Assembly (NCBI GenBank): GCA_963826885.1
Contig: CAWGYL010000009.1
Span: 172,176 to 236,175, forward strand
DNA: 64,000 nucleotides
Direction: 5' to 3'
DNA from: Nitrospirota bacterium
Lineage (GTDB): Bacteria > Nitrospirota > UBA9217
In this document: piece after piece, positions 7 to 1,675 of the stretch
How the letters are laid out: each line of letters starts with the position of its first letter
Position numbering within the stretch: the stretch's first letter is position 1
Program-made: the position numbers and the translations under genes
Notes under the pieces: generated by a model
Told to the model about the DNA's origin: nothing
Seen by the model: only the letters and a program-made list of their open reading frames with translations
Database searches by the model: none

Positions 7-30
7 ATGATTTCATTATAATGAAATCAT
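7..30. promoter_or_regulatory. Perfect 24-bp palindrome ATGATTTCATTATAATGAAATCAT (operator- or res-site-like)
   Basis: Sequence is its own reverse complement; a second imperfect palindrome GTGAA-AATATA-TTCAC follows at 41-56. Function inferred only. Confidence 0.45.
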
Positions 31-250
31 GTTCGATAAAGTGAAAATATATTCACTAAAAGAATGCGCCTTGGGCCGTATACTCGTCGAGACGACCCAC
101 CAGAAGGTCCTTGCTGTTTCTGGCCGATCCTGCGCGGCATCTATAGGGCTCCGAGACATCTAATAAGGTCTGGGTTAGCATAGGCCAGACAAGCAAAATT
201 CTTAACGATCTGCTACGGCTGGCCGTGGTCTTATTTGTTTCCGTTTGTTA

Positions 251-355
251 GGACTTAATTGTCCATGCCCATCCCATCGGATGCTAGTTTTGTAAGGACT
301 TAATTGTTTAACAACGACTTAATTGTATTAGCAAGGACTTAATTGTTTCCTGACA
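251..355 (-). mobile_element. Probable transposon end (Tn7/Tn5053/Mu-like): terminal TGT plus four transposase-binding-type repeats
   Basis: (G/C)GACTTAATTGT occurs at 251, 296, 315 and 335 (spacing 45, 19, 20 bp). On the minus strand the array begins 5'-TGTCAGGAA-ACAATTAAGTCC at 355. Confidence 0.6.
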
Positions 356-424
356 ATAGTGCAAAGGTCGTTGCCTCAATATTTCTTCTTTTTCATTTTC
401 CTCGGAAATGTTATAGTTCCCCCC

Positions 425-1675
425 ATGTTCGGATCGAAAACCTCGCGCCTCCCCTTCCACTACGGCTGGGTGATCGTCGTCACCGGCACGCTTTGCATCA
501 TGGCCTGTCTCGGGTTTGGCCGTTTTGCGCTCGGGATGCTGCTTCCCTCCATGGCGGCATCACTCAAGCTTTCCTATTCCCAGATTGGCTTCATCAGCAC
601 CTGCAATTTCATCGGCTATCTTCTGTCGGTACTTTTCTGCGGCCATATCGCGCGCAGGATCGGATCTAGACGCTTGATCGTCATTGCGCTTGTCATCATC
701 GCGGCTTCCATGGCGCTCATCAGCCGTTCAACGAGCTTCACCGGCGTTCTGCTCCTCTACCTGATCACCGGCATGGGCAGCGGGGCTGCGAACGTGCCGG
801 TCATGGGTCTCATCACAGCATGGTTCGACCGGTCTATCAGAGGCCGGGCTGCCGGATTCGTGGTTATCGGCAGCGGATTCGCCATCATTATTTCAGGGAA
901 GCTTATCCCCTTCGTGAACAGGCTTATGGGGCTTGATGGCTGGAGGGTCAACTGGCTTGTTCTTGCGGGAGCGGTAGCAATCATAGCAGGATTCGCTTTT
1001 TTATTTCTGCGGAATAAACCGCAGGACGTGGGATTATTTCCCTTTGGAGGCGATGGGAGCCAGGCAACGACGGTGTATCAGTCAGAAATGGACCGGAAAA
1101 GCATTTACAAAAACAAAACGCTCTATCTTCTTGGCGCGATCTATTTTCTCTTTGGATATACCTACGTGATATACGCGACCTTCATTGTGACGACGCTAGT
1201 CAAGGAGCGGGGCTTCTCGGAGGCAATCGCGGGTAACTTCTGGTCCTGGGTGGGGCTTTTGAGCCTTTTTTCCGGTCCTGTATTCGGAACGCTGTCGGAC
1301 CAGCTTGGAAGAAAAAAGGGGCTTATGATCGTGTTCTCACTCCAGACGCTCGCTTATCTTCTCGTCGCAGCAAAGCTGCCGCCATTGTTCCTCTATCTCT
1401 CCATCGGATTCTACGGCATCGTCGCCTGGTCCATCCCGTCGATCATGGTTGCGGCGGTGAGTGAATACGTGGGTGTGGATAGGGCGCTTGCCGCCTTCGG
1501 CTTCATAACCTTCATTTTCGGCCTCGGCCAAATCACGGGCCCTTCCATTGCCGGCATTATGGCCGAAAGAACCGGCAGTTTCTCCGGTAGCTTCTTCATG
1601 GCGGCGGTCTTTGCAGGCGCAGCGATCATGCTCACCGCGCTGCTAAAAAAACCGCACAACGCGTTATCACGCTGA
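425..1675 (+). CDS. MFS transporter (YbfB/YjiJ-like)
   Basis: About 12 hydrophobic segments; motif-A-like GHIARRIGSRR and GTLSDQLGRKK; N-terminal FHYGWVIV. ORF track starts at 359 (GTG); ATG at 425 preferred. Confidence 0.88.
   Translation: MFGSKTSRLPFHYGWVIVVTGTLCIMACLGFGRFALGMLLPSMAASLKLSYSQIGFISTCNFIGYLLSVLFCGHIARRIGSRRLIVIALVIIAASMALISRSTSFTGVLLLYLITGMGSGAANVPVMGLITAWFDRSIRGRAAGFVVIGSGFAIIISGKLIPFVNRLMGLDGWRVNWLVLAGAVAIIAGFAFLFLRNKPQDVGLFPFGGDGSQATTVYQSEMDRKSIYKNKTLYLLGAIYFLFGYTYVIYATFIVTTLVKERGFSEAIAGNFWSWVGLLSLFSGPVFGTLSDQLGRKKGLMIVFSLQTLAYLLVAAKLPPLFLYLSIGFYGIVAWSIPSIMVAAVSEYVGVDRALAAFGFITFIFGLGQITGPSIAGIMAERTGSFSGSFFMAAVFAGAAIMLTALLKKPHNALSR

Follow-up and report, generated by a model that had tools for sequence, protein, structure and literature searches.

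The window analysed here, a 64,000-nucleotide stretch of a Nitrospirota genome (G000:C9:172176-236175; window position 1 is position 1501 of L001), comes from a metagenome-assembled genome of 21 contigs and 4.47 Mb with an estimated completeness of 90%. At its left edge (1-251), inward of a short repeat array, is non-coding DNA with a unique sequence, and this DNA runs upstream to the stop codon of an rluA-like gene at window position -172, giving a non-coding interior of 520 bp between that gene and the end described below. Bases 1-251 hold no tns remnant and resemble neither the rest of the genome nor any of the loci that were fetched. The 20 kb upstream encode indolepyruvate-ferredoxin oxidoreductase (IOR) subunits, two PaaK-type ligases, a NUDIX protein, an amidohydrolase, a thioesterase and the RluA-type pseudouridine synthase, and no transposase or replication gene was found in this scanned flank. 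On the other side of the array, as its outside neighbour, lies an MFS transporter gene (MFS_1/MFS_4; 425-1675, plus strand). Its predicted promoter (390-417, plus strand; TTTTCA, 16 nt, TG-TATAGT), with a -35 box at 390 and a TG-extended -10 box at 412, falls outside the element, is kept in congeners and was left undamaged by the insertion. An alternative sigma-54 promoter/enhancer reading of 356-424 was rejected for its poor match to TGGCAC-N5-TTGC, as judged by eye. Within the non-coding DNA between the rluA-like gene and the array, we noted a perfect 24-bp palindrome at window 7-30 (ATGATTTCATTA directly followed by TAATGAAATCAT), then GTGAAAATATATTCAC, which may be an operator; a structured RNA in the 520-bp interior was also considered and discarded, as the Rfam search came back empty.

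The array itself consists of four exact copies of GACTTAATTGT on the plus strand (252-262, 297-307, 316-326 and 336-346), with start-to-start intervals of 45, 19 and 20 bp. The initial annotation had listed four repeats at 251, 296, 315 and 335, and these are real, the starts being one base lower because the preceding G or C was included. No further exact copy exists on either strand of the whole 4,474,458-base assembly, and a control pattern, the reversed GACTTAATTGT, had zero copies in the same assembly. Since any given 11-mer is expected about twice genome-wide, four copies on a single strand within a 95-bp span are far beyond chance. The array closes with bases 347-355, TTCCTGACA, which read 5'-TGTCAGGAA on the minus strand and form the terminal 9 bp of the right end, with the TGT/ACA terminus at 353-355. 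Counting inward from this terminus on the minus strand, the copies make up four predicted TnsB-type sites with the core ACAATTAAGTC: the terminal site 1 (336-346), site 2 (316-326, 20 bp from site 1), site 3 (297-307, 19 bp from site 2) and site 4 (252-262, 45 bp from site 3 and the exact copy lying furthest inward). A possible degenerate fifth site on the same strand (GTCTTATTTGT, 228-238, two mismatches) is weak and could be chance; part of it coincides with the T-run of a terminator-like hairpin (212-229). Immediately beyond the terminus stands ATAGT (356-360), 5 bp that would represent one copy of a target duplication only if the original insertion was here. The sequence is independently supported by Logan contigs from two different studies with 0 differences over the array (X1, covering L001 1377-2726, and X2, covering L001 1518-1890), and a 6.2-kb JGI metagenome contig has 100% identity to the array region. 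Zero-difference contigs from independent metagenome studies show that the repeats, and the point where they join the MFS leader, are genuine and no product of faulty assembly. A metagenome search aimed at intact elements more closely related to this copy returned the same organism alone.

Comparison with other genomes revealed that window 249-349 is homologous to the end of an element in another Nitrospirota genome of the same family (G005; 79% identity over 102 bp), and shorter stretches also align with ends in G004, L014 and L016. The spacing of the sites is common to these ends (45/19/20 bp here, 44/19/20 bp in G004 and 45/20/20 bp in L016), including the fourth site, which lies 44 bp (G004) or 45 bp (L016) inward in the same layout as in this genome. 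In all seven related ends, T(G/A)T occurs at exactly 9 nt outside the first site, and TGTCAGGAA places it likewise here. The published standard for Tn7-like transposons is three TnsB sites on the left and four on the right (PMC8649781; PMC11406308), with closely spaced sites in right ends, spaced sites in left ends and typically a 5-bp duplication (PMC11406308; PMC8649781); the window has both the TGT terminus just outside the first site and the closely spaced direct array of four. On the combined grounds of end homology, spacing, TGT offset and published end architecture, the motif content of bases 252-355 identifies them as a Tn7-like right end.

The resemblance extends to the right end of Escherichia coli Tn7 (Tn7R), whose sequence between glmS and tnsA was 100% identical in 110 E. 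coli genomes. Tn7R reads TGTGGGCGG-ACAATAAAGTC, compared with TGTCAGGAA-ACAATTAAGTC here, so that each begins with 5'-TGT and 6 nt before the first TnsB site, at an equal 9-nt offset, and the cores agree at 10 of 11 bases (ACAAT(A/T)AAGTC). Both carry several direct sites about every 20 bp, and in the complete relatives, as in Tn7, it is the closely spaced end that adjoins the attachment gene. The two also differ: Tn7R has four partly overlapping 22-bp sites with tnsA directly next to them and the glmS 3' end as its flank, whereas the end here has three sites 19-20 bp apart plus a fourth 45 bp inward, no tns gene, no left end, and an MFS 5' region as its flank.

To survey related ends, we scanned one genome per species for two core copies 6-12 bp apart, which yielded 23 loci, and fetched 40-60 kb around seven of them. 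Three archaeal and Prevotella loci (L009, L019 and L027) were rejected as related ends, being ordinary tandem repeats that chance to hold the 11-mer. The loci from Nitrospirota and one deltaproteobacterial MAG (L014, L016, L022 and L030) have three sites 19-20 bp apart, usually with a fourth 44-45 bp inward, while beta- and gammaproteobacterial loci have two sites plus TGATAGGAA. Inverted partner ends are present in both Nitrospirota genomes, G004 and G005, which a phylum-wide scan placed in the same family as this genome; their left-end sites are 98 and 24 bp apart (in G005 at 352315, 352413 and 352437). The G005 element is 33 kb long and encodes TnsA (Pfam PF08722, 9.6e-19), TnsB, TnsC (TniB/AAA_22) and two TnsD/TniQ proteins, with type I restriction-modification and ThiF genes as cargo and a perfect 5-bp duplication, GAAGG, at both termini. 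Its TnsB matches E. coli Tn7 TnsB (PDB 7PIK) at E 8e-95, and E. coli TnsA, TnsB and TnsC are 38, 32 and 34% identical to the G005 proteins. The original reading of a TGT terminus followed by reiterated TnsB-type sites of a Tn7-type end is thereby upheld, as a genome of the same family has homologous ends on either side of a tnsABCD element, with a 5-bp duplication.

The Nitrospirota right ends sit 11-20 bp past the stop codon of a gene for an acetolactate-synthase-like TPP enzyme (L035:1501-1573 in G005, L034 in G004, and L014:7795-7870), the product of which has the C-terminus FS(K/E)E..L.CE*. This usual attachment site is empty in the genome under study (C5, about 106.97 kb). G004 holds a 3.7-kb derivative with both Tn7-like ends and no transposase (L052:16210-19950; G004:C5:334110-337850), which carries methyltransferase-like, glycosyltransferase-like and membrane protein genes only; its left end lies about 30 bp past a sigma-54 activator gene, and no matching 5-bp duplication was found at its termini. 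The end in the window shares architecture, spacing and host family with the G005 and G004 copies, but unlike them it is one end at a different site: both of those have two ends and the acetolactate-synthase-like site, and G005 has tnsABCDD and GAAGG as well.

Several further arrays turned up in these comparisons. Six beta- and gammaproteobacterial loci (L011:7518-7999, L015, L017, L020, L026 and L028) contain a two-site end with the same 11-bp core, TGATAGGAA-ACAATTAAGTC-N9-ACAATTAAGTC, positioned directly at the 3' end of the ammonium transporter gene amtB; on its inner side, the end in L011 is next to a gene for a 1,843-aa DUF4011/helicase/MTES_1575 defence-like protein. A full-text literature search, which was not exhaustive, found neither the acetolactate-synthase-like nor the amtB attachment site. 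The congener G010 has two related site arrays (C1:221520-221680 and 624150-624280; L103/L108 and L105/L107) in inverted relative orientation about 400 kb apart; the DNA outside each array is nearly identical over more than 80 bp, no tns genes lie within 40 kb, and an inversion between two copies of an element may have left the pair as scars. Contigs of Nitrospiraceae and Acidobacteriota (L023:2636-2730 and L024:671-721) carry 3-5 copies of the same core at a strict 20-bp period, (G/A)ACTTAATTGT plus ctaagtaa(a/g), and probably represent additional related right ends in which the sites are fully contiguous.

In contrast to the complete relatives, the end in the window appears to stand by itself. 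The inverted partner end that the initial annotation had expected is absent assembly-wide, with no inverted motif cluster at up to 2 mismatches on any of the 21 contigs of this 90%-complete MAG. Allowing up to 2 mismatches, there is likewise no inverted site-like sequence between -1450 and 250, where two matches with 3 mismatches seem fortuitous; a search across the local 1.9 kb that tolerated 3 mismatches gave no convincing site. Given the completeness of 90%, a cognate element might still reside on a contig that was not binned. No tnsA/B/C/D or TniQ gene was found either: tblastn of the five G005 Tns proteins and of E. coli Tn7 TnsA, TnsB and TnsC against the 90%-complete assembly detected no Tn7-like gene, the lone match being a weak one to a generic DDE insertion sequence present in five copies. 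The same queries recovered, as positive controls, a distant gammaproteobacterial set as well as the G005 genes. Searches of the genome by Pfam family for tns genes were also negative, but their controls were silent too, and these negatives therefore carry little weight beside tblastn. Candidate tns pseudogene fragments beside the end were dropped, as tblastn at E up to 50 gave noise only. The multi-copy DDE insertion sequence is unrelated to the GACTTAATTGT array; its five identical rve-type transposase genes are at C6:10613-10936, C4:13619-13942, C4:37404-37727, C4:131569-131892 and C3:568512-568835.

Focusing on congeners, we found the MFS ortholog in nine of them (78-92% identity). The initial annotation had reasoned that repeats conserved in relatives without any insertion, together with the lack of a partner end or a TnsB/IstA-type transposase upstream, would speak against a transposon end; the array is instead absent upstream of the MFS gene in all nine. 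For the closest congener, G012, homology restarts at window 364, 9 bp outside the proposed terminus, which sets the boundary at about 355 and agrees with the earlier placement at 355, about 70 bp upstream of the MFS gene (the terminus is 69 bp from the start codon and 35 bp from the -35 box). The thioesterase and MFS genes are about 325 bp apart in five congeners versus about 1.8 kb here, and the PaaK block upstream of the thioesterase aligns too in at least two of the five (L069 and L075). Given the gap of about 325 bp, lineage-specific or transposon-derived DNA amounts to at most about 1.75 kb, and the extra DNA comprises the rluA-like gene (window -1197 to -172), the right end and, between them, the unique non-coding stretch of 520 bp. 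The left boundary of this segment falls in intergenic DNA that is too diverged among the congeners to fix it, and G012 has a deletion and a repeat element there.

The rluA-like gene (L007:18803-19828) is found as a full gene at the thioesterase/MFS locus in this genome only. Its orthologs in ten congeners (71-78% identical) occupy other variable loci, often beside insertion-sequence copies, and the homology to them is limited to the coding region. At the same locus, G012 has a 183-bp rluA fragment, no array, and then the repeat element. The relocated rluA here, together with the fragment and repeat in G012, marks the thioesterase/MFS site as a rearrangement hot spot. The repeat, about 180-250 bp long, is possibly a MITE or an insertion-sequence fragment; it occurs in the genome under study at C5:2940-3194, C3:645912-646088 and C2:182837-183013, and in G012 (L067) it occupies the position of the transposon end. 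The idea that rluA originally lay beside the canonical attachment gene was abandoned because no acetolactate-synthase-like gene lies within 10 kb of rluA in G010.

These rearrangements bear on an alternative in which a non-autonomous unit of about 1.6 kb (-1228 to 355), made up of the rluA-like gene, the 520 bp and the right end, was moved whole by a cognate transposase, its left end being cryptic and ATAGT its target duplication. Such a unit would fit with the second ATAGT at window -1233 to -1229, 31 bp before the rluA start, which could be chance, and its recurrence at 356-360, with the location of rluA elsewhere in ten congeners and its coding-region-only homology, and with the transposase-less, two-ended 3.7-kb derivative known in G004. 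However, neither a TnsB-site-like sequence nor a TGT terminus follows the left ATAGT, the recurrence of a 5-mer within a few hundred bp is unremarkable, and G012 has an rluA fragment at the site yet lacks the array. We regard this alternative as quite unlikely.

A role of the array for the host, as a transcription-factor or nucleoid-protein array acting on the MFS promoter or as a decoy giving long-range target immunity against incoming cognate elements, is something we rate as quite improbable. Its position 35 bp upstream of the -35 box and its four undecayed cores would suit such a role, as would the ability of Tn7 ends in target DNA to inhibit insertion nearby (PMC11406308 section 2.8). Yet nine congeners have the same MFS gene and promoter without the array, the array is homologous to transposon ends and to no host operator, and a cognate DNA-binding protein is absent from the 90%-complete assembly.

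The initial annotation had favored a large element extending to the left of the window, and a still complete Tn7-like or CRISPR-associated (CAST) element of that kind would account for the intact look of the end (four exact sites, a TGT terminus) and would be within the known range of Tn7-like elements, which can span tens of kb (33 kb in G005). This part of the annotation did not hold up, and we judge the reading very improbable: the 20 kb upstream contain RluA, thioesterase, PaaK, IOR, NUDIX and amidohydrolase genes and no transposase, the IOR, PaaK and thioesterase genes are conserved chromosome that lies close to the MFS gene in five congeners (about 325 bp for the thioesterase), and the inverted partner and tns genes are absent from all contigs of the 90%-complete assembly. 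CAST elements are alike in their Tn7-type end design, with a TGT terminus and TnsB site arrays, but the relatives here use TnsD-type targeting beside a conserved gene, and neither cas genes nor a CRISPR array were seen among the ORFs scanned in the window flank or among the ten scanned in the right-hand 20 kb of the G005 element, so nothing suggests a CAST.

IS21 and Tn402-type elements also have reiterated subterminal repeats and TG termini, and the Tn5053/Tn402 family further shares a TniB-type ATPase and TniQ, but that family has no TnsA and uses a resolvase. Such an element end, or plasmid-type iterons (IS21-type ends and iterons were raised at the outset as alternatives), is hardly credible despite the 5-copy DDE insertion sequence in the genome, since the intact relatives encode TnsA endonuclease together with TnsB, TnsC and TnsD, the TnsB of G005 being of the Tn7 type (E 8e-95 to Tn7 TnsB), the motif is confined to one genomic locus and so is not the end of a multi-copy insertion sequence, and no replication gene is nearby.

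Taken together, it is highly probable that 252-355 is the orphan right end of a Tn7-like (TnsA/TnsB/TnsC/TnsD) cut-and-paste transposon whose tns genes and left end were lost, with insertion followed by internal deletion as the most likely history. An element or fragment, its right end facing MFS, would once have separated the thioesterase gene from the MFS gene, and the transposase genes and left end would have disappeared later. What is left would be four direct TnsB-binding sites of about 20 bp (core ACAATTAAGTC) and the terminal TGTCAGGAA, with ...ACA-3' as the presumptive point at which TnsB cuts and joins. In active relatives, array-bound TnsB would pair the right end with the inverted left end, whose three sites are 98 and 24 bp apart, TnsA would cut the other strand, and TnsC with TnsD would steer insertion to a point 11-20 bp past the acetolactate-synthase-like gene, where the target would be duplicated over 5 bp. 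The end in this genome would by comparison be an inert scar, with the -35 box of the intact MFS promoter 35 bp downstream of it. With no transposase and no second end, the orphan end is immobile; it may have some residual activity, for example the binding of an incoming cognate TnsB. The mutual identity of the four cores suggests that a recent loss, or possibly maintenance, fits better than an old decaying relic; as a counterpoint to a recent event, G012 already carries an rluA fragment at this site.

The end is a defective member of the Tn7-like group, and such elements, their end design and their occurrence in Nitrospirae are already known, Nitrospirae being among the listed hosts of Tn7-like elements (Benler et al. 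2021, PMC8649781). As the scar of a known transposon class, it is of little importance itself and has no evident effect on the neighboring gene, while illustrating that Tn7-type ends are recognizable by a reader from sequence alone. For transposon specialists, the comparisons bring out a Nitrospirota Tn7-like lineage close to prototypic Tn7, with an acetolactate-synthase-like site and two TnsD paralogs, and related proteobacterial elements that share the 11-bp core and insert at the amtB 3' end. For the organism, the end marks a plastic spot in a peat/soil Nitrospirota genome, where rluA has been relocated and where G012 carries a repeat element.
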